Shown here: in pieces, positions 29,551 through 59,299 of the stretch
Position numbering within the stretch: position 1 is the stretch's first letter
Layout: the number at the start of each line of letters is the position of its first letter
Assembly (NCBI GenBank): GCA_017432425.1
Contig: JAFRJE010000010.1
Location: 11,065 to 75,064 of the forward strand
Direction: 5' to 3'
Length of the DNA stretch: 64,000 bases
Source: Candidatus Saccharimonadota bacterium
GTDB lineage: Bacteria > Patescibacteriota > Saccharimonadia > Saccharimonadales > Saccharimonadaceae
The notes under the pieces: generated by a model
Database searches by the model: none
What the model was told of the DNA's origin: nothing
Seen by the model: only the letters and a program-made list of their open reading frames with translations
Program-made: the position numbers and the translations under genes

Positions 29551-30022
29551 TTTTTTCGTTAAAAATTTCCGTAATTTTTTCCGAAACCGCGTTCGCTTGG
29601 ATTTTTATTTCGTTATATTTTTCTGAAATTTCATTATTATCTTCCGCTGTTTTATAAAATTCGAGAAAATTTTTAAAATTTTCTTTAAAATTCTCAATTT
29701 CTTCTCGAACTTTTTCGGTTTTTGCTTCCGAAATTAGTTTTTCTAACTTTCCGAGATAATTATTAAATTCTTCTTCTCCCGCTTCTTCCGGAATTTCCGA
29801 AAAATTTTCCGAAACGGCTTTAGAAAATTCTGTTTTTTCTAAAACTGCCGCGCTAAGAGCCGACAATTTTTCTTCAGTTTCGATTTTAAAATTTTCGCGA
29901 CCGTCCTCAACGCCTTGATGATAAATAAATTTTGTTCCATAAAACCCGCCAACAATCAAAACCAGAAACAACAAAACGACTAAAATAATTTTAAAAAGTT
30001 TTTTAGATTTATTTCCTTTCAT
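29525..30022 (-). CDS. Hypothetical membrane-anchored coiled-coil protein
   Basis: N-terminal TM helix (LFKIILVVLLFLVLIVGGFYG), then a Glu/Lys-rich helical region. Confidence 0.55.
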   Translation of the reverse strand: MKGNKSKKLFKIILVVLLFLVLIVGGFYGTKFIYHQGVEDGRENFKIETEEKLSALSAAVLEKTEFSKAVSENFSEIPEEAGEEEFNNYLGKLEKLISEAKTEKVREEIENFKENFKNFLEFYKTAEDNNEISEKYNEIKIQANAVSEKITEIFNEKIKAAAGEL

Positions 30023-44576: not shown

Positions 44577-45127
44577 CCGAAAAAGTAAAACGATACATGG
44601 ATTTTATGGGCCCCTCGACCCGTACCGTAAAAAAATCCTCAAGCGATCCGCTCGCGGCTCGCCCTGTCGTTCGTTCTGCCTCTAAAACTCCCTCCTCGAA
44701 AAAGCCCGTCGCCGAGAAACCCGCCCCAATAAAAAAGCCTGCTCAAAAACCCCTTAAAACCGCCTCCCCTGCGAAAGATTCTGACGCTCTCGCCCTAAAA
44801 GCCGCTGCTGCTCTCTCTGGGACGAACTTAAAATCCTCTGCCCCCTCGAAATATACCTTAAACGGAAAATCCCCTTTTCTGTCTTCTTATAATATTGAGA
44901 AACGTCCCCTTTCTGACTCCATAAAAGAGAAAAAAGTCGAAGAAATTACGAAGAAAAACGTCTACAAAAAAGAAGAAAAGCCCGTAAAAAAGTCTAAAAA
45001 AGAGCCGGTCGTCGTTATTGACCAACCGAAAAAATCTTCCGGTTTAAGCCTCGTTATTATTATTCTAATTACTATTCTTCTTGGGGCCGCCGTCGGCGCC
45101 GGTGCCTATTTCCTCCTCCCGAAATAA
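44573..45127 (+). CDS. Hypothetical Lys/Pro/Ser-rich protein with C-terminal TM helix
   Basis: The ATGA overlap with tpiA suggests translational coupling. Low-complexity basic region, then LSLVIIILITILLGAAVGAGAYFLL. Confidence 0.6.
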   Translation: MTEKVKRYMDFMGPSTRTVKKSSSDPLAARPVVRSASKTPSSKKPVAEKPAPIKKPAQKPLKTASPAKDSDALALKAAAALSGTNLKSSAPSKYTLNGKSPFLSSYNIEKRPLSDSIKEKKVEEITKKNVYKKEEKPVKKSKKEPVVVIDQPKKSSGLSLVIIILITILLGAAVGAGAYFLLPK

Positions 45128-45290: not shown

Positions 45291-45319
45291 TTGACTATTT
45301 TCCTAATAAGTTATATAAT
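45291..45319 (+). promoter_or_regulatory. Sigma70-type promoter (TTGACT-17-TATAAT)
   Basis: TTGACT at 45291-45296 and TATAAT at 45314-45319, followed by AGGAGG at 45365-45370 and TTG start 45380. Confidence 0.55.
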
Positions 45320-45379
45320 ATAAATATACAACTTCTCTCTTGAAGAAGCGTAAATTAAAATCCTAGGAGGTGAATTTTC

Positions 45380-46162
45380 TTGTCTGAAGAAAATAATCGT
45401 GAGAATCCCCCAGTTGAAGAAGATGTCCAGGAAAACTCCGAAGAAGAAACTTCTCCCGACCCCCCGACTCCCGAAGACGCCCCCGACGACGATGATGATA
45501 GTGATGAGTATGATGAGTATGATGATATTTTCGACGTCGAAGATGACGAAGACGATGATGACGATGATGGCGAATTTGAATATGAAGATCCGCCCCCGCG
45601 CCGGCGTCGCAAGCGTCGCAACTCTCGCAGGTACAGCCGTCGTCGCCGTTCTCCTTTCAGCTTCGCGCTAGCTATCTGTCTCATCGTCCTGTTTGCCCTC
45701 ATCATCTTTCTGGTCGTTTTGCTTTCGACCAGAGGTAATTCGTCAACTACTCCCCAACCCGCTCTCCAGACCCCGACGCCTGTTCCTGCTTCTACCGCTT
45801 CAATCGTTTATGTAACGCCCGTTCCGACGTCGGGGGCAGTTCATGCGACCGCTGCCCCGACTACCCAAGTCATCTACGTTACTCAGGCTCCAGTCATAAC
45901 ATCGGTTCCGACAGCGACCCCTGTTCCGACTGCAACCCCGACCCCAACTAGAAGTCCCGAGCTGACCCCGCCGCCTCGTTCGACGGCTACGCCGCCCGTC
46001 TGGACTTCTCCCCCAGTTTCAACCCCAACGCCAGTCATAACCCCGACTCCAGAACCATACGCCAGCCCAGTCCCGGAGATTATCCCCGAAGTTACGCTTC
46101 GCCCCGAACTAGCCGGCGACGGAGATAATTCGACCCACTTCAACTTTTCCGATGACGATTAA
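45380..46162 (+). CDS. Hypothetical charge-patterned single-pass membrane protein (hyperacidic and polybasic N-region, TM, Pro-Thr-rich ectodomain, C-terminal HFNFSDDD)
   Basis: TTG start 9 nt after AGGAGG. DDDDDSDEYDEYDDIFDVEDDEDDDDDD, then RRRRKRRNSRRYSRRRR, a TM helix, PTATPVPTATPTPT and TPPPRS. G+C-rich relative to neighbours. Confidence 0.75.
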   Translation: MSEENNRENPPVEEDVQENSEEETSPDPPTPEDAPDDDDDSDEYDEYDDIFDVEDDEDDDDDDGEFEYEDPPPRRRRKRRNSRRYSRRRRSPFSFALAICLIVLFALIIFLVVLLSTRGNSSTTPQPALQTPTPVPASTASIVYVTPVPTSGAVHATAAPTTQVIYVTQAPVITSVPTATPVPTATPTPTRSPELTPPPRSTATPPVWTSPPVSTPTPVITPTPEPYASPVPEIIPEVTLRPELAGDGDNSTHFNFSDDD

Positions 46163-46173
46163 CCTCCTCCCCG

Positions 46174-46199
46174 CCCCGCTTAATGAAGCGGGGCTTTTT
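46174..46199 (+). terminator. Intrinsic terminator
   Basis: CCCCGCT-TAATGA-AGCGGGG followed by CTTTTT. Confidence 0.75.
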
Positions 46200-46265
46200 C
46201 TATCAAATTCCCTAAAATCTCTTCTTGTAGCTAGGAAAATGTGTTATAATGAACTAAATCTATCC

Positions 46266-46342
<77 letters not shown>

Positions 46343-46453
46343 ATGTTAATAATTGGTTAAGCATATCTCAACTACCCCTGTAAAAAGGGGCTTTTTTGTT
46401 AGTTTTCCGTAAAATGGCATAAGCGGATTTGAACCCTCAAAATTGCTTCTGCT

Positions 46454-46702
46454 TGGTGCAAAAAAGAGAAAATTCTTGTTACCGTGTAACATGGTTATTT
46501 TTCGCTATACTCGTTCATGAACATATCTATCGAATATCACGTATTTTAGGCTTGCCTGGTGCAGGTCTGGTGCAGTTTTGCGCTTGCCTGGTGCAGTTTT
46601 GCGCTTGCCTGGTGCAGTTTTGCGCTTGCCTGGTGCAAAATTATGTTGTATTTGGGCAATCCTGGTGCGTACTTGGTGCAGTTCTGGTGCACAATTGGTG
46701 CA
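46454..46702. repeat. Array of ten TGGTGC(A/G) sites spaced in multiples of about one helical turn, including 3.5 tandem 21-bp units
   Basis: Sites start at 46454, 46557, 46568, 46589, 46610, 46631, 46663, 46674, 46685 and 46696. The unit GCTTGCCTGGTGCAGTTTTGC is repeated in tandem. Confidence 0.9.
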
Positions 46703-46705
46703 ACA

Positions 46706-46788
46706 CCAAAGTGCCAAGTTTTTCCCAGCCGAACTGCCAAGTATTCTTTCTCCAAAGTGCCAAGTTTTTCCCAGCCGAACTGCCAAGT
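46706..46788. repeat. Two identical 37-bp direct repeats carrying four TGCCAAGT sites at 23-bp spacing
   Basis: CCAAAGTGCCAAGTTTTTCCCAGCCGAACTGCCAAGT at 46706-46742 and 46752-46788. TGCCAAGT at 46712, 46735, 46758 and 46781. Confidence 0.9.
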
Positions 46789-46829
46789 TCGAGCTTGCTT
46801 TTATAAAACTTGTGATATAATCAGGATAT

Positions 46830-48104
46830 ATGGCAAAAAATGAATATATCCCCAGATTAGTCGATAAGGAGCTCCAAGAAAAACTAGACAACTTTGGCGC
46901 GATTAACATTATCGGTTGTAAATGGTGTGGCAAAACGCGAACCGCAAAAGAATTCGCTAAGAGTTTTATTGAACTTCAAAACCCAAACGATAAGTCTATT
47001 CCTCTTATCAAAAGTGAACCCAGCCTCGCCCTTGAAGGCAACTACCCCCGGCTAATCGACGAGTGGCAAGATATTCCAGAAATCTGGGATGCTGTCCGCT
47101 ATGAAGTTGATAAGACCGGAGAAATTGGCCAATTTATATTAACGGGCTCATCCACTCCTAGAAAAGAAAAGCCAAAACACTCAGGTGCGGGACGGTTTGC
47201 AGACGTCAAAATGCGCCCCATGTCTTTATTCGAATCGGGTGATTCTAACGGTGAGATTTCCTTAGAATCTCTCTTTATTTCTAATATCAGAGTCAAGGGC
47301 GAATCCCCTTATCGTCTCGGCGATATCGCTTATCTTTGTGCTCGTGGTGGTTGGCCGAGTAGTATAGCGCATAAACCGACCAACCCTTTGCTCCTACCTA
47401 AGGAATATCTTAAGAAACTCATCAATCGAGAAGAAAGCTTTGGTGATATTGATTATTTTAGCCCGGGACGAATGCAGGCTCTCCTCAGGTCGATCGCTAG
47501 AAAAACTGCAACTCCAATTCGGATTGCTACAACCGTCAATGACATTTTACAAAATACAGGAACGAGCATTACCGACATCACGGTCTCAAACTACCTATCG
47601 GTTCTTGAACAGCTTTACTTGCTTGAAGACGTTGAAGCTTGGTCGCCGAAGCTAAGAAGCAAAACTGATATTCGTACGACCAAAAAGCGCTTTTTCGTCG
47701 ATCCATCTCTTGCTGTAGCATCTCTTTACGCAAATGAAAACGATCTGCTATCTGACGCGGAAACATTTGGTCTAATCTTTGAATCCATGGCACTTCGCGA
47801 TCTAAGGATCTACTCTGAAGCAATTAACGGTGAACTCTTTTATTATCGCGACAAAAACGGGTTAGAATGCGACGCAATCATTCATCTCGCAGATGGAAGG
47901 TGGGGTGCCATAGAAATCAAGCTTGGGTCTGCTAAGGAAACCATCGAAGCAGCAGCGGCTTCATTACGCGCTCTTGAAACGCAAATTGACACAACGGCCA
48001 TGAAGTCTCCTTCGTTTCTGATGATTCTATCTGGCGACTCAAAATATGCCTACAGAAGGGAAGATGGCGTATATGTAGTGCCGATTGGATGTCTCAAGCC
48101 ATAG
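46830..48104 (+). CDS. AAA+ ATPase of the AAA_14/DUF4143 type
   Basis: Walker A GCKWCGKT and LIDEWQ Walker B-like motif. Overall layout resembles COG1373-type ATPases. TGATATAAT lies 8 nt upstream of the ATG. Confidence 0.8.
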   Translation: MAKNEYIPRLVDKELQEKLDNFGAINIIGCKWCGKTRTAKEFAKSFIELQNPNDKSIPLIKSEPSLALEGNYPRLIDEWQDIPEIWDAVRYEVDKTGEIGQFILTGSSTPRKEKPKHSGAGRFADVKMRPMSLFESGDSNGEISLESLFISNIRVKGESPYRLGDIAYLCARGGWPSSIAHKPTNPLLLPKEYLKKLINREESFGDIDYFSPGRMQALLRSIARKTATPIRIATTVNDILQNTGTSITDITVSNYLSVLEQLYLLEDVEAWSPKLRSKTDIRTTKKRFFVDPSLAVASLYANENDLLSDAETFGLIFESMALRDLRIYSEAINGELFYYRDKNGLECDAIIHLADGRWGAIEIKLGSAKETIEAAAASLRALETQIDTTAMKSPSFLMILSGDSKYAYRREDGVYVVPIGCLKP

Positions 48105-48166
48105 AGGTGCGAGAAATGGGGTTTAATAAAACAAACGACAACAACGCAGCATAGTATAAATAAACC

Positions 48167-49072
48167 CTATACTATCCCCTCATGATTCCCCTCAATCTTA
48201 TACATTCTTCTTTCTCCACGATTCTTGACTACTTTTTTATTGATGTAGTCTTTCGTGTAAGATTTCCCAATCACTACATCGCCGTGATATTTCTCATTGT
48301 TCAGAATACCTACGATGGTAGCCGGATGCCATTTAGCTTTGCCTTTAGGGGCAGGGATAGCTTCCTGTTCTAGGATATGTGCAATTCTGGTAGAACCCTT
48401 GCCTTGTTGGTTTAGCTCAAAGATTCTTCTCACAACTCTAGCTTCTGGTTCATAAATAACTAATTTGCCAGTTGCTTCGTCTTTCCTATAGCCATAACAA
48501 GGTCGGTTATATCTTCCCGACTTCCCCGACTCCGCCGCCCTTTCCATTCCCCACTTAATATTCTCGCTGCGTTGTCGACTTTCGTCCTGGAAGAGGGAAA
48601 AGAAAACAGAATAATACATCTCCGCCTTAGGGTCAAAGATAGAAACAGGATAACATTCAAACCTAACTTCTATCCCCAAATCCTTTAACTCTCTCAAAAT
48701 AGAAAGCCCGTCTACCGTATTCCTACTGAATCGACTCGGACTTTTACAAAGGATCAGATCAATCCTGCCTTTTCGGCAATCATCAAGCATCGCCAAGAAT
48801 TCCGGTCGTTTATCGGTTCTCAGTCCTGACGCCTCATCCGCATAAATTCCTACATAGTTCCAGTTCGGATTCTTCTTAATGTAATCTCTATAATACTCTT
48901 TCTGCGCTATTAGGGAGCCATATTGCTCATCTTTCTTAGAAGAAACTCGCGCGTAAGCAGCAACGTTAAGACGTCTATTGCTTTTATCTATACTAAGTTC
49001 ATGGCGAGAAACTTCGTCAGTCAACCATGCCTCTGGTAGTATTTCCTGGACTTTCATAAACGCAGGTATCAT
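48167..49072 (-). CDS. Large serine recombinase, C-terminally truncated (resolvase + recombinase domains only)
   Basis: AAYARVSS catalytic Ser, LILCKSPSRFSRN, PCYGYRKD, WHPATIVGILNNEKYHGD. Ends at ...IEGNHEGIV, where full-length enzymes continue into a zinc ribbon and coiled coil. Downstream frames show no continuation. Confidence 0.75.
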   Translation of the reverse strand: MIPAFMKVQEILPEAWLTDEVSRHELSIDKSNRRLNVAAYARVSSKKDEQYGSLIAQKEYYRDYIKKNPNWNYVGIYADEASGLRTDKRPEFLAMLDDCRKGRIDLILCKSPSRFSRNTVDGLSILRELKDLGIEVRFECYPVSIFDPKAEMYYSVFFSLFQDESRQRSENIKWGMERAAESGKSGRYNRPCYGYRKDEATGKLVIYEPEARVVRRIFELNQQGKGSTRIAHILEQEAIPAPKGKAKWHPATIVGILNNEKYHGDVVIGKSYTKDYINKKVVKNRGERRMYKIEGNHEGIV

Positions 49073-49120
49073 AACATATTTTTGAGGTAGTTCAAAGCAT
49101 AAACACCTTCCACCCCTGTT

Positions 49121-49326
49121 GCTACACGGTAAAACACGGGAAACGTATTGTGTTACACGGAAAAGCATGTGAGCCTTATTATGCTACACGGGAAAGAAAA
49201 AATCGTTACACGGCAAAACACGGGAAAAGTGTATTCAAGCAAAAAGCGAACAGCGAACCCAAAAATCGAACCATAGGATTCACTTCGTTATTTGAGCTGC
49301 ACACACCCACGGTATTCGCTACACGG
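49121..49326. repeat. Array of seven ACACGG sites, six of them spaced in multiples of about one helical turn, upstream of the recombinase gene
   Basis: ACACGG at 49124, 49134, 49155, 49186, 49208, 49218 and 49321. A 25-bp composite G(C/T)TACACGG(T/C)AAAACACGGGAAA(C/A)G occurs at 49121 and 49205 (22/25 identical). Confidence 0.85.
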
Positions 49327-49439
49327 AAGGCTACTTTGTCGCCAAATTGACGCAACGAGCCACTCCCCTTGACTAAGGGACTTTTTTATGCTAAAATTTC
49401 AAAAAATCGCACCTTTCGCTCAAAAAAGGAGGAATATTC

Positions 49440-49787
49440 ATGAAGCCTTCCGTTATTGCCGTATCTGTCGCCTTTGTCGCTATTATCGTCGCCGTTGTTA
49501 TCGCCCTCTGCTTAGACTCGACTGGAACTTCCGCCCCGCCGACGACCGCTGTCCAAGCCCAAACCGCTACGCCCCAGGTCGTCTATGCGACCGCGGCTCC
49601 CGCCAGCGAAAATTTGACCTGGGCGCTCTATGATTCTAAAACCGGTCAAATCATCGCCACCCCCGTTCCGACCGCGACCCCTGTTCCTCTCCAGAATCCC
49701 AACGATCGCCCATTTGGGGACGTCTCAAAAGGCGCCGTCTCCGATTATGGCGACGGCTTCCAATCTACCCCTCCGCCCCGCTCCTAA
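49440..49787 (+). CDS. Short paralogue of the 45380 protein ectodomain (signal anchor + Pro-Thr-rich, ends TPPPRS)
   Basis: AGGAGG SD upstream. TM helix VIAVSVAFVAIIVAVVIALCL. TATPQVVYATAAP and ATPVPTATPVP match APTTQVIYVTQAP and VPTATPVPTATP in the 45380 product. Confidence 0.65.
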   Translation: MKPSVIAVSVAFVAIIVAVVIALCLDSTGTSAPPTTAVQAQTATPQVVYATAAPASENLTWALYDSKTGQIIATPVPTATPVPLQNPNDRPFGDVSKGAVSDYGDGFQSTPPPRS

Positions 49788-49800
49788 CGCGGGGCTTTTT
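49776..49800 (+). terminator. Intrinsic terminator homologous to the one at 46174
   Basis: CCCCGC-TCCTAAC-GCGGGG followed by CTTTTT. The TAA stop of the gene lies in the loop. Confidence 0.75.
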
Positions 49801-49809
49801 CTAAAACGG

Positions 49810-50571
49810 CTAAATACAGGTATAGCCGCCGTCAACCGGCAAAATTACCCCTGTTACATAACTTGCTTCTTTCGAAGCCAAGAAAACAGCCGCCGCGTCT
49901 AACTCGCCCGGCTTCCCGTATCTTTCCATCGGTACGTGTGTTTTTGCAAACTCCTGGAACTTCGGCGTGTCGAGTACCGGCTTCGTTAACTCTGTCTCAA
50001 AATACCCTGGACAAATCGCATTACAGGTTATTCCGTCCGTCGCCAATTCCGCCGCGACTGCTCGCGTAAAGTTAACGACTCCGCCTTTCGAGGAATGATA
50101 AGCAACCGTATGGATTTCCGTATTTCCGACCAACCCATACATACTCGCGATATTTATAATTCGCCCATAATTTTGTTTTTTCATCAACTTCCCAAACGCC
50201 CGCGTCATCTTAAACACGCTAGTCAAATCAGTCGCAATCGTAAAGTCCCACTCTTCGTCCTCCATCTCGACGACTCCTTTATCTTTTGAGCTTCCCGCGC
50301 AGTTTAGTAAAATATCAACTTTCCCGAACTCCGCCTCGACTTTCTCCGCCGCCGCGTTAATCTCCTCTGTCATCGTTACGTCTACCTTAACGGGGAGAAC
50401 TTTAACCTTATATTCTTTTTCTAACCTCGCTTTTAGCTCCTCTAGTCTTTCGACTCGCCTCGCTAGAATCGCTAAATCCGCTCCCTGTCGCGCAAATGCC
50501 TCCGCCATTTGTCTCCCTAAACCGCTCGACGCTCCAGTTACGACCGCGACTTGCCCTTTTAAGTTAAACAT
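49810..50571 (-). CDS. Short-chain dehydrogenase/reductase (3-oxoacyl-ACP reductase-like)
   Basis: VTGASSGLG cofactor motif, NCAG, and the YHSSK catalytic Tyr/Lys. ATG 50571 follows AAAGGAG. Confidence 0.85.
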   Translation of the reverse strand: MFNLKGQVAVVTGASSGLGRQMAEAFARQGADLAILARRVERLEELKARLEKEYKVKVLPVKVDVTMTEEINAAAEKVEAEFGKVDILLNCAGSSKDKGVVEMEDEEWDFTIATDLTSVFKMTRAFGKLMKKQNYGRIINIASMYGLVGNTEIHTVAYHSSKGGVVNFTRAVAAELATDGITCNAICPGYFETELTKPVLDTPKFQEFAKTHVPMERYGKPGELDAAAVFLASKEASYVTGVILPVDGGYTCI

Positions 50572-50637
50572 AAAAACTCCTTTCTGTAAATTTTTTTCAC
50601 AATCTATTTCATGCATTTCTTTAATCTTGACGCTAAA

Positions 50638-51585
50638 TCATAATTCACCTCGTGATATAAAATCAATCGCTCCTGTCGCCGCAACCGCCCCGTCCGCCGT
50701 TGCTGTAACCAGTTGATTTAACTTTTTCTTCCGAACGTCCCCTGCGCAAAACACCCCCTCCCTCGAAGTTCGACAGCTTTCGTCCGACTCAATATATCCC
50801 TCTTTGTCAAGTTCAATGAACTCCTTAAACCTCTGATTATCTGGCTCTCGCCCAATCGCAACAAACAACCCCCCAACCGCCAGCTCTTTTCTCTCTGAAT
50901 CGCCTCCGGAAACCTCTGTCTCCTCTAAAATTATCTTTTCTAGCTTTTTACCCCCTGCTAATTCGACAATTTTTTTGTTCATCAAAAACTCAACATGCCC
51001 CAACTACGCGACTTTCTCGACCAAAGCCTTGTCTGCCCGAAACTCCCCTCGTCGATGGATAACATAAACCTTAGCCGCTAAATTCGCGAGATAGAGCGCG
51101 TCCCAGAGTGCCGTATTTCCGCCCCCGTTAACCGCGACCGTCTTTCCCTTAAAGAACCCCCCGTCGCAGGTCGCGCAGTACGAAATCCCCCGCCCGACAA
51201 ACTTTTCCTCGTTACTAAGCCCAAGTCTCCTCTCGACCGACCCATTGGCGAGAATAATCGCTCGCGCAACATATTCTCCCTCGTCTGTCAAAACTTTAAA
51301 CTTCCCCCTGCCTTGATTATTTTCAACAATTTCTAAAACCTCCTCAAACCTAAACTCCGCCCCTAGCTCCTTCGCTTGTTTATAGAGGTTATTCGCAAAC
51401 TCGACCCCAGAAATATGCGCTGCCGCCGGATAATTCTCGATTTTTGTCGTATTTATAATTTGCCCGCCGTACGTTTTCGCCTCAAAAACCAAAACTTCCT
51501 TTCCCGCCCGTACCCCATAAATCGCCGCCGTCATTCCCGCCGCCCCCGCGCCAACAATGACAATATCATAAACTTTTTCTGTCAT
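50638..51585 (-). pseudogene. trxB: Thioredoxin reductase interrupted by one in-frame TAG
   Basis: The two ORFs are contiguous and in the same frame (193 aa, TAG at 51004-51006, 121 aa). They carry GAGAAGMTAA, CATCDG, GGGNTA and FCAGDV motifs. The combined length is typical of TrxB. Confidence 0.7.
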
Positions 51586-51588
51586 ACT

Positions 51589-51894
51589 CTAATCCTCTAA
51601 TAGTTTCAATACCTTTTGCTTCGACATCGCCCCAATCGATCGCTTAATCTCTTTTCCGCCTCTAAAAACAACCAAACAGGGAATCGAAGAAACCTCGAAT
51701 TCCTCCGCTGAATCCTCATTTTCGTCAATATTAACCGAAAAAACTCGTCCCTCCCCCGCCTCTTTCTCGACTTCCTCTAAAACCGGCTTCATCATCTGAC
51801 ACGGGCCACACCAATCCGCATTAAAATCAACTAAAACCCTCTTCTCTCCCTCGAGAACTTTCTCTTTAAAACTCGCCTTATTTAGTTCAATCAT
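51589..51894 (-). CDS. trxA: Thioredoxin
   Basis: WCGPC active site; 101 aa. Confidence 0.9.
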   Translation of the reverse strand: MIELNKASFKEKVLEGEKRVLVDFNADWCGPCQMMKPVLEEVEKEAGEGRVFSVNIDENEDSAEEFEVSSIPCLVVFRGGKEIKRSIGAMSKQKVLKLLED

Positions 51895-51895
51895 C

Positions 51896-52447
51896 TTAGT
51901 TGACCCCTAATAATTTTTTAATATCGTCCTCAAATTCAAGCGGATTCGTCGTCGGCGCATACCTAAACGCCGGCTCGCCCGTCCTCGAAATCAAAAATTT
52001 CGTAAAGTTCCAGCGAATATACCCCTTTTCTTTCGCCGCTTTCGGAACCATTTTGTCAATCGCCCCCATCGCGAGCTTATTTTTCATCCCCCTAACTTCT
52101 TCTTCCGGAATCGCTCCCTTTAAGAAGCTAAAAATCGGCTCCGCTTTATCTCCGTTGACCTCAATTTTCTTTAATTGGTCAAATTTTGTCTTATATTTCC
52201 CCGTACAAAATGTGTGGATTTCTTCGTCCGTCCCTGGTGCTTGATGCCCAAACTGGTCGCACGGAAAATCGAGAATTTCAAGCCCCGTTTCGTGATATTT
52301 TTCATACAGCGTCTCTAACCCCTCGTATTGCGGCGTGAATCCGCACCCCGTCGCCGTATTAACGACCAAAATAACTTTCCCCTCTAAAGTTTTCAAATCC
52401 AACTCGCTTCCGTCGCGCTTTGGAACCTTAAAATCATAAATTTTCAT
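51896..52447 (-). CDS. Glutathione peroxidase family peroxidase (Cys type)
   Basis: NTATGCGFTPQY, FPCDQFGHQ and WNFTKFL motifs. Confidence 0.88.
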   Translation of the reverse strand: MKIYDFKVPKRDGSELDLKTLEGKVILVVNTATGCGFTPQYEGLETLYEKYHETGLEILDFPCDQFGHQAPGTDEEIHTFCTGKYKTKFDQLKKIEVNGDKAEPIFSFLKGAIPEEEVRGMKNKLAMGAIDKMVPKAAKEKGYIRWNFTKFLISRTGEPAFRYAPTTNPLEFEDDIKKLLGVN

Positions 52448-52575
52448 ACCTAAATAACTCCTTTGCTCTCTAAATTATACCATACAAAACCTTAACTTTT
52501 CCCTAAAAACCTTGTCTTTAAACTTCGTTTAAACTTAACTGTGATAAAATAATATTAACTAAACGGAGTATTTTT

Positions 52576-53991
52576 ATGGACAATAATTCTTACATTTCCT
52601 CAACCGGCGGCGAGAATGCCCTCCTCGTCTCTGGCGAAGACCTGACTTTAACCTCTCCGACCATCTCCAAAACCGGCGATGAATCTTCCGAAAACTCCGA
52701 TTTTTACGGAACTAACGCTGCTGTCCTCGTAACTTCCGGAACCTTAAAAATCTCTGGCGGCTCCGTCGAGACTAACGCCTCCCACGCTAACGCCGTCTTC
52801 GCCTATTCCTCCGGTAAAATTGAGCTCGAAAATACCTCAATCAAAACCTCCGGTAACAATTCCGGCGGGATTATGGTAACCGGCGGCGGAACCCTAACCG
52901 CGACGAACCTCTCTGTCGAAACCTCTGGTAACTCCTCCGCCGCTATTCGCTCCGACCGCGGCGGCGGAACAATCAACGTCTCTGGCGGCTCCTACACGAC
53001 CTCTGGCGTCGGCTCTCCCGCAATCTACTCAACCGCCGACATTTACATCTCTGACGGCGCCGAACTTTCCTCGACTTCCTCCGAGGGCGTCGTTATCGAG
53101 GGCTCAAATTCCGTCTCTCTCGAAAAATCCTCCCTGACCGACACGAACGTCTCCCTAAACGGCAATTCCGAAACCTATAAAAATATCTTCATTTACCAGA
53201 GTATGTCCGGCGACGCGAAAGAGGGAACTGGAAAGTTTAACGCCTCTGACTCTCTAATCACGACGAATAAAGGCGATACTTTTTTCATTACAAACACGAC
53301 CGCCGCAATTACCCTCTCTAATAATAAATTTGTCAATACCGACCCGACCGGCGTTTTTCTCCGCGCGGGGAGCGGAAAATGGGGAACTAAAGGAAAAAAC
53401 GGCGGAATCGTCAATCTAACCCTCGATTCTCAGGTCATCGAAGGCGATATTGTCCTCAACTCAATTTCTAGCCTCTCTCTCGTCCTTGAGAATGAAAGCT
53501 ACTATAAAGGAACGTTTAAACTTTCCGACGGATACTGGGACGAATCCGCAATTACCGCCTCCGCCAGCTATTCAAACTCCTTAACTCTCTCTAAAGATTC
53601 CGTTTACGTCTTAACCGGCGACACTGGCTTCTCCTCTCTCGAAAACGAAGACGAATCGAACTCAAACATCTACGCTAACGGCTATAATCTCTATGTTGCT
53701 GGCGAAAAAGTCGAAGTGAACGAATCCGAAGCTCCCGCCGTCCCTGAGGTCTCCCTCGATTCAACTTCTACGGAAACCTCCTCCTCTGTCGAAGAAGTAA
53801 CTGACCCCGTCGCCTCCCCTGAAGAAATTTCTTCCTCTCCCTCTCTCGCTCTAATTCTCTCCCTCTCTGTCTGTGGCGTTCTCCTCCTCGGTTTAATTAT
53901 TTTCATGATTCTTAAACTCCGTAAAAAATCTCCGAACCCTCCCGACGTTATTATTGACCAATCTACCCCTCCTGAAAACCCCTTTAAATAA
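52576..53991 (+). CDS. Beta-helix repeat surface-type protein (Cthe_2159-like carbohydrate-binding family resemblance) with C-terminal TM helix
   Basis: Repeats of the type ISGGSVETN / TSGNNSGGIMVTGGGTLTATN / VSGGSYTTSG. C-terminal LALILSLSVCGVLLLGLIIFMIL then a basic stop-transfer. No N-terminal signal peptide in the ORF. Confidence 0.55.
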   Translation: MDNNSYISSTGGENALLVSGEDLTLTSPTISKTGDESSENSDFYGTNAAVLVTSGTLKISGGSVETNASHANAVFAYSSGKIELENTSIKTSGNNSGGIMVTGGGTLTATNLSVETSGNSSAAIRSDRGGGTINVSGGSYTTSGVGSPAIYSTADIYISDGAELSSTSSEGVVIEGSNSVSLEKSSLTDTNVSLNGNSETYKNIFIYQSMSGDAKEGTGKFNASDSLITTNKGDTFFITNTTAAITLSNNKFVNTDPTGVFLRAGSGKWGTKGKNGGIVNLTLDSQVIEGDIVLNSISSLSLVLENESYYKGTFKLSDGYWDESAITASASYSNSLTLSKDSVYVLTGDTGFSSLENEDESNSNIYANGYNLYVAGEKVEVNESEAPAVPEVSLDSTSTETSSSVEEVTDPVASPEEISSSPSLALILSLSVCGVLLLGLIIFMILKLRKKSPNPPDVIIDQSTPPENPFK

Positions 53992-53998
53992 AATACTC

Positions 53999-54027
53999 TT
54001 GCTTTTTTGTCGAAAGTGTGATATAAT
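53999..54027 (+). promoter_or_regulatory. Sigma70-type promoter (TTGCTT-17-TATAAT)
   Basis: TTGCTT at 53999-54004 and TATAAT at 54022-54027 with TG at -14/-15. About 60-nt leader, then AGGGGAGG. Confidence 0.5.
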
Positions 54028-54091
54028 AAGGTCATTGCTTCGGAATTTGTCCTGAGCACGCACTCAAACTTTTTAGGGGAGGTAAAAAGTT

Positions 54092-55111
54092 ATGTTTGAC
54101 AAGGTGTTTAATGGTACCCCTGGTCTTTTCGACCTGTTCGACACGCAGGAACCCGCCTTGCGGGATTCCCGCAAGAAGAAGTCCGCTGGACAGTCCCGCC
54201 CGAAGCAGGGCTCCCGCAACGACTCCAATACTAATCCGGCGCGCCCGCGTTCGGTTAGTGATAATCCCAGAAAGGGAGGAGAGAACAATATGCCCAAACC
54301 CGTTGACATTCCCGCTCGCCGTCCGGCGCCGCAGTCTGCGCCCCAGATGGCTAACCCCCGTCAGCCCCTGTCCGAACCGACTCCGGAGTCCGAATCTTCG
54401 GTAAAGCCGGCTTCTCCGGCGCGTCCGGTAATCAATTTGCCTGCCGCCGACCCCAAGCCCGCCGATGCCGACGCTCCTCGCGTTCCGTCCCTTTTCGACG
54501 GCTCTGACGATGACCTTACTCCGCCCGAACAGCCCGCCCCTAAGTCGGGAAAGCACACCCCCGGCACTTCTAGGGAAAGCCTCCCGCCGAGGCGGTCTTC
54601 CGACCCGTATAACTTTACGGACGAGGACTTCGCCTGGGCGAACGCCAACGTCTTCAAGCGGATGCGCAATCGCATCGAAGAGATGCGCCAGAATGGCGAG
54701 TGCCTCCAAATCGCCCCCAGCGACTACGAGGCAGACCTTCTCGACCCTGTGAGCGACCTTACGTTTCACATGGACAACGGCAACGCGCATTTCGCCAACG
54801 CCAACTTCATCGAACCGGGAACGCTCGACTATGTTGTTACCATCGCCCAGAATCTCTTTGGGCTGGAGGAGCCCAAGCCGAAAGCGCAGCTCTGCGCCCC
54901 GTTCTTCTACCGTTACGGTGGATGGCGCAGTATCGACGAGGTTGAGCGGGAAGAAGGTAGAATGATTACCTATTCCCAGCTGACCGCCCCCGACTCTATG
55001 TGGAAGTGGTTCCTGACCGACCGGAGTGGCAAGCCCCTCTGTGACAAGGCTGGCGAACTGCCCGCGGGCGATATCGACATCGAGGCGTATCTGAACGACC
55101 GGTACGCCTAA
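54092..55111 (+). CDS. Hypothetical protein: disordered Pro/Arg/Ser-rich N-half with LFDGSDDD, unrecognised globular C-half
   Basis: The long ORF starts with an SD. G+C-rich with CTG/CAG-biased codons. No signal peptide or TM helix. Confidence 0.7.
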   Translation: MFDKVFNGTPGLFDLFDTQEPALRDSRKKKSAGQSRPKQGSRNDSNTNPARPRSVSDNPRKGGENNMPKPVDIPARRPAPQSAPQMANPRQPLSEPTPESESSVKPASPARPVINLPAADPKPADADAPRVPSLFDGSDDDLTPPEQPAPKSGKHTPGTSRESLPPRRSSDPYNFTDEDFAWANANVFKRMRNRIEEMRQNGECLQIAPSDYEADLLDPVSDLTFHMDNGNAHFANANFIEPGTLDYVVTIAQNLFGLEEPKPKAQLCAPFFYRYGGWRSIDEVEREEGRMITYSQLTAPDSMWKWFLTDRSGKPLCDKAGELPAGDIDIEAYLNDRYA

Positions 55112-55131
55112 TCCGCCTTAAACACCCCTTT

Positions 55132-55160
55132 CCCTCGCGCTAAAACGCGGGGGATTTTTT
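55132..55160 (+). terminator. Intrinsic terminator
   Basis: CCCTCGCG-CTAAAA-CGCGGGGG stem followed by ATTTTTT. Confidence 0.8.
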
Positions 55161-55220
55161 ATGTCTAAAAACTAAACATAACCATTTTTTAGAAAACCTG
55201 TAAAATTTATGATAATAACC

Positions 55221-55249
55221 TTGACTTTTTTAGCGATGTGTGCTATAAT
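55221..55249 (+). promoter_or_regulatory. Consensus sigma70 promoter (TTGACT-17-TATAAT)
   Basis: TTGACT at 55221-55226 and TATAAT at 55244-55249 with TG at -14/-15. Confidence 0.6.
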
Positions 55250-55258
55250 GAAAATAGT

Positions 55259-55334
55259 CCATACGGGTGTGGCTAATAACCTGTGTGTATGGTCATTAAA
55301 ACCGAATCATCTCAGATACAAACCACGTATCTGA
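55259..55334 (+). promoter_or_regulatory. Structured 5' leader (two hairpins) of the 55374-57872 operon
   Basis: CCATAC...GTATGG at 55259-55292 and TCAGATAC-AAACCAC-GTATCTGA at 55312-55334, between the promoter and AAGGAGGG. Confidence 0.35.
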
Positions 55335-55373
55335 ACAAATACTACTCTGTATGACAAAAAGGAGGGGGCTTCC

Positions 55374-56198
55374 ATGTTGGCATACTACATCTGTGTAGTT
55401 CTCACTATCATCGTTTCGATTCTTATCGCTTTAACCTTCTGGTTTCAGTGTGTGAGCAACAATCGGGATCGGAGAGACCGAAAAATCATGAGGCCTGTTC
55501 CCATGTTCGGACTCTCGACCGCCATCGCTTTCGCGACCTGGCTTCCAATGTTTCTCTCGATCCAGATTCTCCGCGCCCAGTCAATCTCCGTTTTTGGAGC
55601 AATCGGCGAAGCGCTCGTCGCTTGTCTTGCCCTTGTCGAGCTCGTTTTCGTGCTCGACTGGAACAAAAAGGCAAAGACCGAGGGTCAAGCCAAAGGAGTT
55701 TTCACTCTAGTGCTCGTCCCAATCGCCGTCTTTACCTGCGCTCTGACCACGCTTTTCTCTAAAACAGATTGGTGGTTGGTCGTATTCTTCGCTGTTCTGG
55801 CGTTTTCCTCGATTATGTTCACTTGGGCCGCGCGCTCAAAGAACCCGCTCTTCAGGAAGATTAAGAGGACGAAGAAAAAGACACGGGAACGTTTCCGCTC
55901 CTATGACGAGTACGACGAGTACGACGAGTATGACGAAGATGACGAATATGACGAAGAAGATGAAGAAGACGACGATGATGAAGAGGAGGACGACGAAGAG
56001 GAAGAAGACGAAGACGAATACGACGAATATGATGACGATGACGATAACGACGATGATGACGAACCCGAACCGAGGAGGAAAACAACCAATTCTTCTCGCC
56101 GTCGCGGTTCGACCATCGTTCCGCGGCGCATCCAACCCAACTCAAACCAGAACCGTCGCAAGAAGCGGCGCTCCAACGCGACTCGCGTTAGGAGATGA
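55374..56198 (+). CDS. Hypothetical five-TM membrane protein with polybasic / about 60-residue D-E-Y hyperacidic / polybasic tail
   Basis: Five hydrophobic helices, then KIKRTKKKTRERFRSY, then DEYDEYDEYDEDDEYDEEDEEDDDDEEEDDEEEEDEDEYDEYDDDDDNDDDDE, then an RRKKRRSNATRVRR tail. SD AAGGAGGG upstream. Confidence 0.7.
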   Translation: MLAYYICVVLTIIVSILIALTFWFQCVSNNRDRRDRKIMRPVPMFGLSTAIAFATWLPMFLSIQILRAQSISVFGAIGEALVACLALVELVFVLDWNKKAKTEGQAKGVFTLVLVPIAVFTCALTTLFSKTDWWLVVFFAVLAFSSIMFTWAARSKNPLFRKIKRTKKKTRERFRSYDEYDEYDEYDEDDEYDEEDEEDDDDEEEDDEEEEDEDEYDEYDDDDDNDDDDEPEPRRKTTNSSRRRGSTIVPRRIQPNSNQNRRKKRRSNATRVRR

Positions 56199-56216
56199 CT
56201 ATAGGAGGTGTTTTAG

Positions 56217-57872
56217 ATGCGTAAAACGCGCAAAAAGCCCGGCATCGTCCGGTTCACTAGTTTCCTGGCAATCATTTCCGTTTTCGGACTGATTGTCAGC
56301 AGCCTGGGCGTGGCAAATCCTGCCTGGCTCAGCGAAGCCCGTAACCTGATTGACCCTGTCGCTTACGCTGATGGGGTTGAACAAGCCGATCTGACCTTCG
56401 CCTGGAGCGGAAATACCCGCGAACACGCCGACCTCAGCTACCGTTCGCTCATGTCGAACAAGTACTGGGACGCCGGCGAGTGGGTAATTTCCCACAACAG
56501 CTTCTACGAAACCGACGAGGCTCGCGTAGCCGCCGCTGGTTTTAGTGATGCTTTGACTTTCCCCTTTGCGAACTGGCCCGAAGATGAATGGGAAATGATG
56601 TATTTCGACCCCGACCTCCTGAAACAGGAAGTCTGGGAAGAACTGAAAACCAACCCGATTTACCTCTACGCTTTTATCAGCTATCTCCGCGACTGCGAAA
56701 CCAGAAGCGGCGGTACTCTGGGCGACTGGAACTCGGATTGGATGGACCATTACATCGAAACGTCCGACTACTATTGTTCTTTGGCGAACCCGAACAGTCC
56801 GAACTATAATCCCAACGCCGATCTGAAAGGCTGGGACTATTGGACTTGGCAGTCCCAGACGAACATGTATGAAGCCGTCGCGACCGACGAATACAAGGAA
56901 ATCGCTATTCTAGCGATGTCTCTGTTTGACCGGTTCGTGTTTATCGGCTTCTATGACAACGTCAACGCTTACGAATCGTGGGCGCTGAGCGATACCCAGT
57001 CAACCGACTACCGGACGGCGATTAAAATGGATTACCATATTACCCGCCCGGCGATTGTCTTCGGCTATGAACGTAAGGATAGCTTCGGTGCGCGCTTTTT
57101 CGGCGGACAGGGAACTTATGATTGTTTGTTAGGGCTTGACCGCCATGACAAACGTCCCGAGCGACCTGGCGAACCCGAACAGCCGCCTGCCCCGACCGCA
57201 ACTCCCTACATTCCTCCGATTTCCCAGCCGACTCCGACTCCGGAAATGCCGACTGTCCCGCCGATTGAGACGGTTCCGCCGACGAAACCGCCGAAGCCGA
57301 CCCCGACCCCGACTGCGACTCCTGTCCCGACTGCGACCCCGCAGCCTACGACAACTCCGCAACCTACGACAACGCCGCGACCGACGAATACACCTAAGCC
57401 GACTCCGACGGCAAAACCGACGCCTACACCGACAGCGAAGCCGACCCCGACCCCAACGGTCAAGCCGACTCCGACTCCGACAACTAGGCCGACTCCGACT
57501 CCGACGCCTGCCCCGACCGCAACTCCCCATCCGACCAAGGATCCGGGCGAACGGCCCCAGGCTACAGATGCGCCGATTGGCGGTGGTCCGGTTAATCCGG
57601 AGAATTCGGAAGATCCCTATCAGCCGACTCCGCCTCCGCGTTCAACGCCGAGGCCGGCAGACCCGACTCCGAAGCCAGCTGACCCGACGCCGAAACCGAC
57701 CGAAAAGCCGGCAGACCCGACGCCGAAGCCAGCCGATCCGACGAAGAAACCGGAAGTAACCGTGGCTCCGCCCGCTCCGGTTGAACCGGAAAAACCGGCG
57801 GCAACCAAAAAGCCGGAGATTCATGACGATCCTCCCCAGGAGGAACACATCGACTTCTCCGACGACGACTAG
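56217..57872 (+). CDS. Hypothetical secreted/anchored protein: signal anchor, Trp/Tyr/Asp-rich domain, about 200-aa Pro-Thr-rich linker, C-terminal HIDFSDDD
   Basis: TAGGAGG SD; the ATG lies 18 nt after the upstream stop. FTSFLAIISVFGLIVSSLGVA signal, PTATPVPTATP and TPPPRS modules, PADPTPK repeats. Confidence 0.75.
   Translation: MRKTRKKPGIVRFTSFLAIISVFGLIVSSLGVANPAWLSEARNLIDPVAYADGVEQADLTFAWSGNTREHADLSYRSLMSNKYWDAGEWVISHNSFYETDEARVAAAGFSDALTFPFANWPEDEWEMMYFDPDLLKQEVWEELKTNPIYLYAFISYLRDCETRSGGTLGDWNSDWMDHYIETSDYYCSLANPNSPNYNPNADLKGWDYWTWQSQTNMYEAVATDEYKEIAILAMSLFDRFVFIGFYDNVNAYESWALSDTQSTDYRTAIKMDYHITRPAIVFGYERKDSFGARFFGGQGTYDCLLGLDRHDKRPERPGEPEQPPAPTATPYIPPISQPTPTPEMPTVPPIETVPPTKPPKPTPTPTATPVPTATPQPTTTPQPTTTPRPTNTPKPTPTAKPTPTPTAKPTPTPTVKPTPTPTTRPTPTPTPAPTATPHPTKDPGERPQATDAPIGGGPVNPENSEDPYQPTPPPRSTPRPADPTPKPADPTPKPTEKPADPTPKPADPTKKPEVTVAPPAPVEPEKPAATKKPEIHDDPPQEEHIDFSDDD
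57654..57761 (+). repeat. Tandem 54-nt coding duplication (PADPTPKPADPT(P/K)KP units)
   Basis: CCGGCAGACCCGAC...CCGAAGCCAGC recurs at 57654 and 57708. Confidence 0.7.
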
Positions 57873-58045
57873 TTCATACAGCGAACCTTATTTGCTTCGG
57901 CGGATTTCATATCCGCCGGGGCTTCCCCTTAAAAGATCTATTTTGTTTCTGAGACGATTCGGCTTTTTTGGCAGCATTAACAATCCGGCTAGAAAAAGTT
58001 CTCTAAAAGTGTTAATCTAAAGTTAATCTATAATAAGGAGTTATT

Positions 58046-59299
58046 ATGAAAAAAGGATTAAAAATCGCTCTCGGCGCGACGGCTGCTGTCGCTCTCGCTG
58101 GAGTTAACTATGCTCCGAGCCTTGTTTCTGCTTGGGGCGACAATGGTGGCGGTCGAACCACTTACACAATCGACCAAATCAATAAAGGGGCTATCGACGA
58201 CAAAATCGTCTTTAACTCTATCTCCGACAACCCGGACGGTAACGAGCTTTACTTCGTTTCTGCCCGTGCTGACGGCTCTGCTAACATTTGGAATACTAAC
58301 GACATTACCGTCGAAGACGGCAAAACTTACATCGTTCGTATGTATGTCCACAACAACAACCCTCGTGGAACGGAAATGATCGCTAAAAATGTTACGGCGA
58401 ACTTTTACGTCCCGACTGAATCCGGAACGGAACTTTCTGTCAACGGTTTTATCGACTCAACTAACGCGACCCCGTCTAGCTACTGGGACAGCGTTGTCTT
58501 TAAATCCTCCCAGAACTTCCACCTCGAATACATTTCCGGTTCTGCCTTGATTGAGAACAAAGGCAAACTTAACGGAACTAAACTTTCCGACAACATCGTT
58601 ACCGGCGGTACTCTTCTCGGCTATGATTCGCTTAATGGCGAAATCCCTGGCTGTTTCGGTTACTCTGCTTTCGTAACGATTAAAGTTAAAGCGACCTACG
58701 ATTATAACTTCTCGATTAAGAAGCAAGTTAAAATCAGCGGTACTAAAGGTTGGAAAGAATCCGTTGACGCTAAAGTTGGCGACAAAGTTGATTATCGTAT
58801 CATCTTTGAAAACCTTAGCGACCAAACCGCAACTGACGTTGTCTTAAAAGACATTCTTCCTGGAAACCTTAAATTCGTTGATGATTCAATGAAACTCACT
58901 AACGGTTCCCACCCTGATGGAATTGCTCTTTCTGGCAACGACATCGTTGCTGGCGGCTTAAACATCGGTAGCTATAAGAAGAACGCAAACGCGGCTCTTA
59001 TCTTTACCGCTGAAGTCGTTGACGAAGATTTAGGTTGTGGTAACAACACTTTAAGGAACTGGGCGCAAGCCTATGTTGGCAACGGTTCTAACCCGACTGG
59101 TGTAAAACAAGATGACGCTGACGTTGTCGTCGCGAAAACTTGTAGCGAACCCGTTGAGCCTGTTGAACCTGTCGAACCGACTACCCCGGAAAAACTTCCG
59201 GAAACTGGTGCTGGCTCGATTGTTGCTTCCGCTCTTGGCTTAGGTTCAATCGTAGCCTCTGCTGGCTACTACATCTCTAGCCGTAAAAAATTAGCTTAA
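58046..59299 (+). CDS. LPXTG-anchored cell-surface protein (sortase substrate) with DUF11-like repeat domain
   Basis: Signal peptide MKKGLKIALGATAAVALAG. C-terminal LPETG, hydrophobic stretch and RKK. The VGDKVDYRIIFENLSDQTATDVVLKDILP segment resembles the conserved-repeat/DUF11 fold. Confidence 0.85.
   Translation: MKKGLKIALGATAAVALAGVNYAPSLVSAWGDNGGGRTTYTIDQINKGAIDDKIVFNSISDNPDGNELYFVSARADGSANIWNTNDITVEDGKTYIVRMYVHNNNPRGTEMIAKNVTANFYVPTESGTELSVNGFIDSTNATPSSYWDSVVFKSSQNFHLEYISGSALIENKGKLNGTKLSDNIVTGGTLLGYDSLNGEIPGCFGYSAFVTIKVKATYDYNFSIKKQVKISGTKGWKESVDAKVGDKVDYRIIFENLSDQTATDVVLKDILPGNLKFVDDSMKLTNGSHPDGIALSGNDIVAGGLNIGSYKKNANAALIFTAEVVDEDLGCGNNTLRNWAQAYVGNGSNPTGVKQDDADVVVAKTCSEPVEPVEPVEPTTPEKLPETGAGSIVASALGLGSIVASAGYYISSRKKLA

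Follow-up and report, generated by a model that had tools for sequence, protein, structure and literature searches.

The window analysed here, a 64,000-nucleotide stretch of the Candidatus Saccharimonadota contig JAFRJE010000010.1, carries on its plus strand a block of three adjoining genes (54092-57872; genes 1, 2 and 3) whose codon usage departs strongly from that of the genes around it. With moderate confidence, we conclude that this block is an old, vertically inherited, rapidly evolving and recombining cell-envelope cassette specific to Saccharibacteria, and not a recent import. Saccharibacteria are obligate epibionts whose surface and host-interface genes are mostly unannotated. In several genera, human oral Nanosynbacter among them, the analysis places a conserved cassette of three genes at one fixed position of the chromosome. 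New in it are a lineage-wide protein family and a cassette with a conserved codon-usage regime, together with a confident model of one ectodomain and a testable connection of gene 2 with gene 3.

The three genes had been delimited by a first-pass annotation, made by a model from the letters alone, and all three open reading frames (ORFs) were found as it described them. The elements of the block are as follows.

53999-54027, plus strand: promoter-like site of gene 1, TTGCTT-17-TGaTATAAT, with a perfect extended -10 and a -35 matching at 3/6 positions
54092-55111, plus strand: gene 1, 339 amino acids (ORF list)
54520-55180, plus strand: divergent allelic patch between the window and a sister strain (L016), covering the gene 1 C-domain and about 70 bp downstream
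55131-55154, plus strand: terminator-like hairpin and T-run after gene 1, with 9 pairs, 7 of them G-C, then TTTTTTAT
55221-55249, plus strand: promoter-like site of genes 2-3, TTGACT-17-TATAAT, 11/12 matches, with a TG
55374-56198, plus strand: gene 2, 274 amino acids (ORF list)
56217-57872, plus strand: gene 3, 551 amino acids (ORF list)
56217-57176, plus strand: gene 3 signal anchor and conserved alpha/beta ectodomain (about 280 amino acids), ending in the family motif HDKRPE
57177-57872, plus strand: gene 3 Pro/Thr-rich stalk of about 230 amino acids, with repeats, ending in the acidic tip HIDFSDDD

The promoter proposed at 55221, the hairpin terminator and the GGAGG-type Shine-Dalgarno (SD) sites ahead of the block genes are all present. 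The promoter proposed at 53999 stands for its extended -10 but not for its -35, and was read directly, its score lying under the threshold of the promoter scan. Genes 2 and 3 are separated by a gap of 18 nucleotides with no terminator, and gene 3 has its own SD site. From this arrangement genes 2 and 3 are predicted to share one promoter, and gene 1 to form a separate transcription unit with its own promoter and terminator. The leader of gene 2 (55256-55373, about 115 nucleotides from promoter to start codon) contains several predicted hairpins, with a z score of only -1.8, and matched no Rfam family.

Conservation of the cassette between tpiA and folD/murB

A single-sequence search with the N-terminal 335 residues of gene 3 retrieved 53 proteins, and a trimmed gene 3 profile retrieved more than 130, including one of Candidatus Nanosynbacter sp. 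When one genome per GTDB species was scanned, six gene 3 loci were obtained, 6/6 of them from Saccharibacteria, including Candidatus Nanosyncoccus nanoralicus. Eight loci were used for comparison: those of the GTDB scan (L010-L015), an 820-kb scaffold (L002) and a Nanosynbacter contig (L019). Two further loci were the closest relative of the cassette (L001) and the sister strain L016, which is about 99% identical to the window over 20 kb outside the divergent patch.

In all eight comparison loci the gene 3 family lies between tpiA and folD/murB, in the order tpiA – … – gene 1-like – gene 2-like – gene 3-like – DUF11/LPXTG – … – folD/murB. A polytopic membrane-protein gene stands immediately upstream of the gene 3-like gene in each of them, preceded in the Nanosyncoccus-type loci by the gene of a small, probably cytoplasmic protein, and a DUF11/LPXTG gene follows directly 3' of the gene 3 homologue in all loci. 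Gene 3 of the window has this same setting, with a polytopic gene upstream and a DUF11/LPXTG gene directly downstream. Identity to the window proteins is 50-63% for TIM, FolD and MurB, 44-45% for DUF11 and 25-28% for the gene 3 domain. Taken with the synteny, these values indicate that the locus is old and that the cassette has followed the divergence of its genome at a higher rate. Within Nanosyncoccus, mean pairwise identity is 59% for the gene 1-like, 69% for the gene 2-like and 83% for the gene 3-like proteins, 92% for FolD and 96% for DUF11.

Independent ruminant-gut samples yielded at least 24 contigs with the gene layout of the window, which is therefore no assembly chimera or artefact. 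One of the comparison loci (L013, 5494-8720) has extra genes between the gene 1-like and gene 2-like genes, including a 111-amino acid ORF, with a G+C content at third codon positions (GC3) of 0.70, and the gene of a 498-amino acid protein, which indicates that the interior of the cassette can take insertions.

No homologue of the cassette was found outside Saccharibacteria in protein sets of 5.8 billion and 1.84 billion sequences, in the genomes of GTDB or in collections of phages and plasmids. The homologues that were found are Saccharibacteria proteins or metagenome proteins without a source name, and the sole source-named database homologue belongs to Saccharibacteria; the phage collections gave no match and the plasmid collections low-complexity matches only. 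No mobility genes or repeats belonging to the block itself flank it. The organism had been supposed to be of Saccharibacteria type, and NCBI bears this out by assigning the neighbouring proteins, which have IJI70 locus tags, to 'Candidatus Saccharibacteria bacterium'.

Codon usage and allelic exchange in the cassette

Cumulative GC skew drops monotonically over the whole window, which places all of it on one replichore. Third positions differ strongly between the strands of the window, with C3 of 0.36 and G3 of 0.13 in plus-strand genes and C3 of 0.14 and G3 of 0.32 in minus-strand genes. Since this asymmetry makes same-strand controls necessary for codon comparisons in the window, same-strand core genes were used as controls for the GC3 of the block.

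The G+C content of the block is 0.555, against 0.453 in the rest of the window, and GC3 reaches 0.72, 0.61 and 0.64 in genes 1, 2 and 3, compared with 0.40-0.56 in the neighbouring genes. Relative to an expectation built from the amino acids of each gene and the core codon table, the GC3 excess corresponds to z values of +7.3, +4.1 and +4.8 for genes 1, 2 and 3, the 56 core genes reaching at most 2.5. With same-strand core genes as the reference (maximum z 2.3), the block as a whole has a z of +9.1, and this same-strand excess comes entirely from G3, which rises from 0.13 to 0.30. The codon-foreign composition described in the first-pass annotation thus survives control for amino acid content, and its hand counts (35/60 G+C inside the block, 23/60 outside) were exact. 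Its statement that Leu is mostly encoded by CTG was overstated, CTG accounting for 31% and CTC for 34% of the Leu codons in the block, although CTG is clearly enriched over the 4-5% of core genes.

The excess is strongest in the globular parts of the proteins (z of 6.9 for the gene 1 C-domain and 4.1 for the gene 3 ectodomain), which argues that it is not an artefact of low complexity or of Pro/Thr and Asp/Glu repeats. The intergenic spacers within the block have a G+C content of 0.37-0.38 and are AT-rich like the rest of the genome, so that within the block only coding DNA carries the anomaly. The neighbouring DUF11/LPXTG and beta-helix genes have ordinary codon usage.

A GC3 excess of the cassette was present in 8/8 other loci, with z values of 4.7-14.1 against same-strand core genes. 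In the cassettes the share of AAG among Lys codons increases from about 0.35 to about 0.65 and that of CAG among Gln codons from about 0.45 to about 0.78, and both are raised in all nine loci. In L014, where the strand bias is reversed, it is C3 that shows the largest rise; common to the cassettes is a higher GC3 combined with a near-absent replication-strand skew. Since synonymous sites reach saturation at such divergences, a donor signature could not have persisted. The presence of the GC3 excess in every lineage consequently means that the bias must be maintained inside Saccharibacteria lineages, and is not an un-ameliorated donor signature.

These results bear directly on the origin first proposed for the block, namely that an island of three genes was recently imported from a donor of high G+C content, such as an actinobacterial host, and that its codons have not yet been ameliorated. 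The GC3 and codon anomaly is indeed real and strong, the block has lost its replication-strand skew as expected of young DNA, and 5-9 kb upstream of it there are two tRNA genes and an element with a serine recombinase. However, the cassette is syntenic, with the same anomaly, in all eight deeply diverged Saccharibacteria loci, its AT-rich spacers carry native-type promoters, and the searches of protein sets, GTDB, phages and plasmids returned no donor homologue. Moreover, the sister strain keeps the three-gene block without the recombinase element, which shows that the latter is a separate 3-kb insertion. A recent import, and with it the actinobacterial donor, is hence barely credible. The first-pass annotation had named vertical inheritance of a well-characterised family across the lineage as evidence that would speak against it: homology proved to be lineage-wide and vertical, in a family that is itself uncharacterised. 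A textbook case of foreign codon usage is here a stable trait of an old vertical locus, which compositional detectors of horizontal gene transfer will miscall.

Three causes of the excess are considered as candidates: a recombination hot spot with GC-biased conversion, selection that favours codons not preferred locally, and serial replacement by alleles from a Saccharibacteria pool. High-expression codon bias was rejected, since these are the very codons that dnaK, a gene of the same strand, avoids. The candidate that we favour is frequent homologous exchange with GC-biased conversion at the locus, for which the cassette would then be a clean test case provided by nature in a reduced genome, and selection would be the main alternative. 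In the latter case AAG, CAG and CTG would slow or pattern translation, or shape the mRNA, for membrane insertion or assembly. Such selection would agree with the rise of AAG and CAG whatever the strand bias, with the confinement of the anomaly to coding DNA, with a preference opposite to that of dnaK and with a precedent in the Candidate Phyla Radiation (CPR), a Pro-Thr-Asp repeat surface protein of Gracilibacterium for which pausing has been discussed (PMC6851277). Nevertheless, gene 1, without any membrane segment, has the strongest excess, and the adjoining secreted DUF11/LPXTG and beta-helix proteins have none, which leaves selection on synonymous sites quite unlikely in our judgement; if it did operate, it would amount to gene-specific translation control in CPR bacteria.

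The divergent patch in gene 1 is, judged from its pattern of identity, the footprint of a homologous replacement between strains. Over 650 bp the window and L016 are 64-80% identical, with about 99% identity on both flanks and sharp bounds. In the patch dS is 0.66 and dN 0.31, compared with a dS of 0.03 in the N-half of gene 1; at the protein level the N-half is about 97% and the C-domain 57% identical, the junction lying at LFD|GSDDD. Both C-domain alleles are GC3-rich (0.76 and 0.74), and the dN/dS of 0.46 indicates that the patch is not under positive selection. Elsewhere in the block the two strains differ by indels, in the acidic tract of gene 2 and in the Pro/Thr stalk. The possibility that the patch is the target of a diversity-generating retroelement was rejected, the substitution spectrum being symmetric over about 650 bp and accompanied by indels. 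No repeat copy of the patch occurs within 45300-58000, and no reverse transcriptase was found among the ORFs scanned, which made up part of those of the window.

This C-domain swap between strains that are about 99% identical, with a dS as high as 0.66 and two equally GC3-rich alleles, is also what would be expected if the ancestral locus had been overwritten serially by xenologous alleles from Saccharibacteria that are on average more G+C-rich, through a shared mobile allele pool. L001, the nearest relative of the cassette, is likewise GC-rich, and the loss of skew fits DNA that changes its genomic context. On the other hand, the divergence of gene 3 parallels that of the housekeeping flanks (99% identity in L016; 25-28% where the neighbours have 50-63%), and among the loci no Saccharibacteria genome has a background GC3 as high as that of the cassette, so that the high-GC donor pool which the process requires was not observed. 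We therefore regard serial xenologous replacement as unlikely, and retain vertical descent with recombination within the lineage.

Predicted proteins and a possible trans-envelope complex

Members of the gene 3 family consist of a signal anchor, an ectodomain of about 270 amino acids ending in HDKRPE, a Pro-rich tail and a short acidic, often aromatic C-terminal tip. Gene 3 of the window has a single N-terminal transmembrane segment by hydropathy and contains the family motifs R-V-x-A-x-G-F-S-x-A-L, N-x-x-W and H-D-K-R-P-E. The columns S56, R64, G69, A73, F78, E103, N107, N133, W136, G166, D272, K273 and R274 are invariant (alignments A1, A2 and A4), and at least three Asp or Glu residues occur among the last eight residues in 148/159 family members. 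The tail also includes a conserved, non-repetitive segment common to Nanosynbacter and Nanosyncoccus members, …KDSVNNGG…GGG.T.G.D.FEP.DP…G.GH..PA…TP.PDQSH… (for example residues ~345-420 of P0175), which is degenerate in gene 3 of the window (~447-480) and indicates that the tail of the family is more than a spacer.

An AlphaFold2 model of the ectodomain, obtained with a 66-sequence alignment, has a predicted local distance difference test score (pLDDT) of 83 and a predicted TM-score (pTM) of 0.86. The more diverse 66-sequence set was needed, a shallow alignment of 54 sequences having given an unusable model (pLDDT 43). The predicted fold is a helical bundle packed on a C-terminal antiparallel sheet. 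Foldseek found no match to it in the PDB (best E 0.44, TM-score 0.16) or in BFVD (best E 0.43), and a PDB sequence search with the gene 3 profile was empty. No family was recognised for genes 1-3 in Pfam, NCBIfam, PADLOC or PHROGs, in which these genes and their equivalents at other loci gave only compositional sub-threshold matches; those to SepX/GlpR, MacP, Trypan_PARP and HrpE were rejected, as they lie in charged or low-complexity tracts and far under the cut-offs. The statement that the globular parts belong to no recognised family accordingly held in the family scans and in both kinds of PDB and structure search. Genes 1-3 have no Gram_pos_anchor or TIGR01167 match and no C-terminal transmembrane segment, and only the neighbour at 58046-59299 is an LPXTG substrate.

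For gene 2, four of the five transmembrane helices first proposed are strong in hydropathy and the fifth is weaker. They are followed by a tail composed of a basic patch, an Asp/Glu/Tyr tract of about 60 amino acids and an Arg/Lys end. With five segments, all basic loops and the basic-acidic-basic tail are predicted to face the cytoplasm. Positional equivalents of gene 2 with several transmembrane segments and an acidic patch are found in all related loci. In two lineages a polytopic domain and a gene 3-type ectodomain are fused in one ORF, L014 9458-11329 (623 amino acids) and L021 1886-3283/P0113 (465 amino acids), and these lineages have no separate gene 2; in L001 the stop codon of the gene 2 equivalent overlaps the start codon of the gene 3 equivalent. 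The fusions suggest a link of the Rosetta-stone type between genes 2 and 3.

The proposal of envelope or secreted proteins holds for genes 2 and 3, which are membrane or extracytoplasmic proteins by hydropathy and architecture. The product of gene 1 has no hydrophobic segment and is inferred to be cytoplasmic. Its N-terminus carries F/L-D motifs (MFDKVF…GLFDLFD), and a disordered Pro/Arg/Ser half ending in LFDGSDDD is followed by a globular C-domain of about 175 amino acids. A full HMMER scan of 1.84 billion representatives with this C-domain returned one homologue only, the sister-strain allele, together with a spurious repeat match in a protein of 3,523 amino acids; a PDB sequence search was empty. 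A SepF-like nature of gene 1, considered for its pattern of amphipathic N-terminus, acidic/aromatic patch, linker and small C-domain, is not claimed, there being no Pfam SepF match.

An N-half that is about 97% identical between strains and is joined at a sharp junction (LFD|GSDDD) to an orphan C-domain of 57% identity recalls a polymorphic effector or toxin, in which case the C-domain would be swappable, export would be independent of Sec and the downstream genes would serve for immunity or delivery. Yet Pfam, NCBIfam and PDB sequence searches revealed no toxin domain and no trafficking domain of the LXG/WXG, Rhs or any other type, gene 2 does not co-vary with gene 1 (it is about 99% identical apart from the acidic-tract indel), no small ORF lies in the variable 70 bp past the gene 1 stop, and the dN/dS of 0.46 gives no sign of positive selection. 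An effector or toxin role of gene 1 is therefore very improbable.

We propose instead that the product of gene 3 is an ectodomain anchored in the membrane and belonging to a family not described before, with a Pro/Thr stalk that would be long enough to span the wall and would present a short acidic-hydrophobic tip. Gene 2 would be a polytopic membrane scaffold, with its block-charged tail in the cytoplasm, that works with gene 3, a partnership suggested by co-transcription, by the overlap in a relative and by the fusion in two lineages. Gene 1 would act as a cytoplasmic partner with F/L-D-acidic motifs and an exchangeable C-domain, probably docking on the cytoplasmic face of the complex. Together with the adjoining LPXTG/DUF11 protein, the cassette would most likely build or decorate a surface structure at the epibiont's envelope or its interface with the host, and its role is probably in surface architecture or host contact. 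A bolder extension, which we put forward very tentatively and think quite unlikely to hold in full, is that the locus is a lineage-wide recombination hot spot where biased conversion has kept synonymous sites off their genomic equilibrium, with high GC3 and no skew, over family-level divergence, and that strain-specific host contact is mediated by a trans-envelope complex of new fold, which combines a variable cytoplasmic adaptor with a membrane scaffold and an acidic-tipped, stalked ectodomain. If this were so, the codon anomaly would be a genomic marker of host-interface genes in Saccharibacteria.

Several observations weigh against the interpretation of the block as an ancestral cassette with these functions. 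S. epibionticum apparently lacks the cassette at its tpiA locus, which suggests that the family is perhaps not phylum-wide; in its transposon sequencing tables (PMC10633639) tpiA is followed by a different gene order, DUF11 genes lie elsewhere and the family could not be mapped. The gene 2-like genes evolve faster than the gene 3-like genes and yet have a lower GC3, so GC3 does not strictly track evolutionary rate, and the idea of conversion starts from a single recombination event. The orthology of genes 1 and 2 with their positional equivalents is putative and argued from position and architecture only: hhalign gave a colinear but weak alignment of gene 1 with its L001 equivalent (P=0.005) and a colinear, marginal one of gene 2 with the Nanosyncoccus set (P=4e-4), BLASTP giving no match in either case. 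Likewise, the homology of the fused transmembrane domains to gene 2 is putative, and the apparent novelty of the ectodomain fold, a model, applies to the PDB and BFVD. The functions given to the three proteins, like the complex, the topology and the display, are predictions.

Neighbouring elements and comparison with known systems

The elements next to the block are the following.

45380-46162, plus strand: module-sharing protein with acidic tract, Arg patch, transmembrane segment, Pro/Thr stalk and C-terminal HFNFSDDD; GC3 z -1.2
46341-49359: integrative element of 3,019 bp, directly after the CCA end of tRNA-Gly(TCC) at 46266-46340
49440-49787, plus strand: small protein with a transmembrane anchor, rich in Pro/Thr/Ala, with the stalk motifs VPTATPVP and TPPPRS; GC3 z +1.5
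52576-53991, plus strand: upstream neighbour, Ser/Gly/Thr-rich and beta-helix-like, with a weak Beta_helix match and a C-terminal transmembrane segment at residues 424-442
58046-59299, plus strand: downstream neighbour, a DUF11 (PF01345) surface protein with an LPXTG anchor (Pfam and NCBIfam) and normal codon usage

The genes at 45380-46162 and 49440-49787 had been grouped with the block as a modular paralogous set. The evidence for this is weak: the likeness is confined to acidic, Arg-rich and Pro/Thr tracts of low complexity and to an F-x-F-S-D-D-D tip, and neither gene is a GC3 outlier. The upstream neighbour (52576-53991) is 66% identical to the L001 protein at the same position beside the cassette.

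The element at 46341-49359 looks like a minimal integrative element with possible defence cargo. It encodes a serine recombinase/integrase (phrog_95, E 1e-84) and an AAA_14/DUF4143 ATPase matching the candidate defence family PADLOC PDC-S01 (E 1.8e-57), and contains 21- and 23-bp tandem repeats (46544-46788). It is missing from L016, where the empty site reads GCACCA|CTCCCC, and CCA is present at both junctions.

After tpiA the window has the gene of a Lys-rich protein of 184 amino acids that is anchored by a C-terminal transmembrane segment (44573-45127). Elsewhere this protein has 408-560 amino acids (L002 5603-6829; L019 600-2282), with a long coiled-coil or disordered N-part, and only its last ~100 residues are conserved, at about 40% identity. 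The S. epibionticum gene at this position has been labelled 'SPOR domain-containing' by structure-based annotation (PMC10633639 supplement).

Two observations concern the rest of the window. Three adjoining genes at 28248-30022 have a GC3 well under expectation (z -3.1 to -4.8), in a region whose G+C content falls to 0.34 at 29-30 kb, and this AT-rich patch is a better candidate for foreign DNA than the three-gene block that had been flagged. The thioredoxin reductase gene trxB (50638-51585, minus strand) has an in-frame TAG at 51004-51006, a position which reads AAG (Lys194) in three sister contigs, so that trxB of this genome is either a pseudogene or affected by a sequencing error.

Among known systems, classical genomic islands resemble the block in that their G+C content, GC3, codons and strand skew are atypical with respect to the flanks. 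In contrast to them, the cassette occupies the same locus, with the same anomaly, in deeply diverged relatives, has native AT-rich spacers and is without mobility genes, repeats or donor homologues of its own. Polymorphic toxins, such as the contact-dependent inhibition (CDI), Rhs and LXG systems, share with gene 1 a conserved N-part, a divergent C-domain, a short junction motif and cassette-like replacement between strains, whereas gene 1 has no recognisable trafficking or toxin domain, co-varying immunity gene or export signal.

Like the wall-spanning LPXTG/sortase proteins of Gram-positive bacteria, gene 3 is predicted to be exported in a monoderm cell and to have a long Pro/Thr segment of a type believed to span the wall, and it adjoins a bona fide sortase substrate (58046-59299). 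Its polarity is nonetheless opposite, with an N-terminal transmembrane anchor, a membrane-proximal globular domain and a distal stalk. Gene 3 ends freely in its acidic tip, lacking an LPXTG motif, a hydrophobic stretch and a basic tail, and in the libraries searched no known family or fold matched its ectodomain.

Among published cases, the closest is a hypervariable surface protein with Pro-Thr-Asp repeats from a Gracilibacterium (BD1-5) (Sieber et al., mBio 2019; PMC6851277). It has no sequence relationship to the cassette. Both it and gene 3 belong to CPR bacteria and combine a single N-terminal transmembrane segment with an extracellular Pro/Thr-rich repeat, and it shares with the block a locally atypical codon usage with more GC-ending codons and localised variation within the population. 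In Gracilibacterium, however, the variation consists of synonymous shuffling within one repeat array of one genome, whereas in the cassette the anomaly extends over three genes, their globular domains included, and reappears at a conserved locus in different genera, and the difference between its strains is an allelic replacement in a non-repetitive domain.

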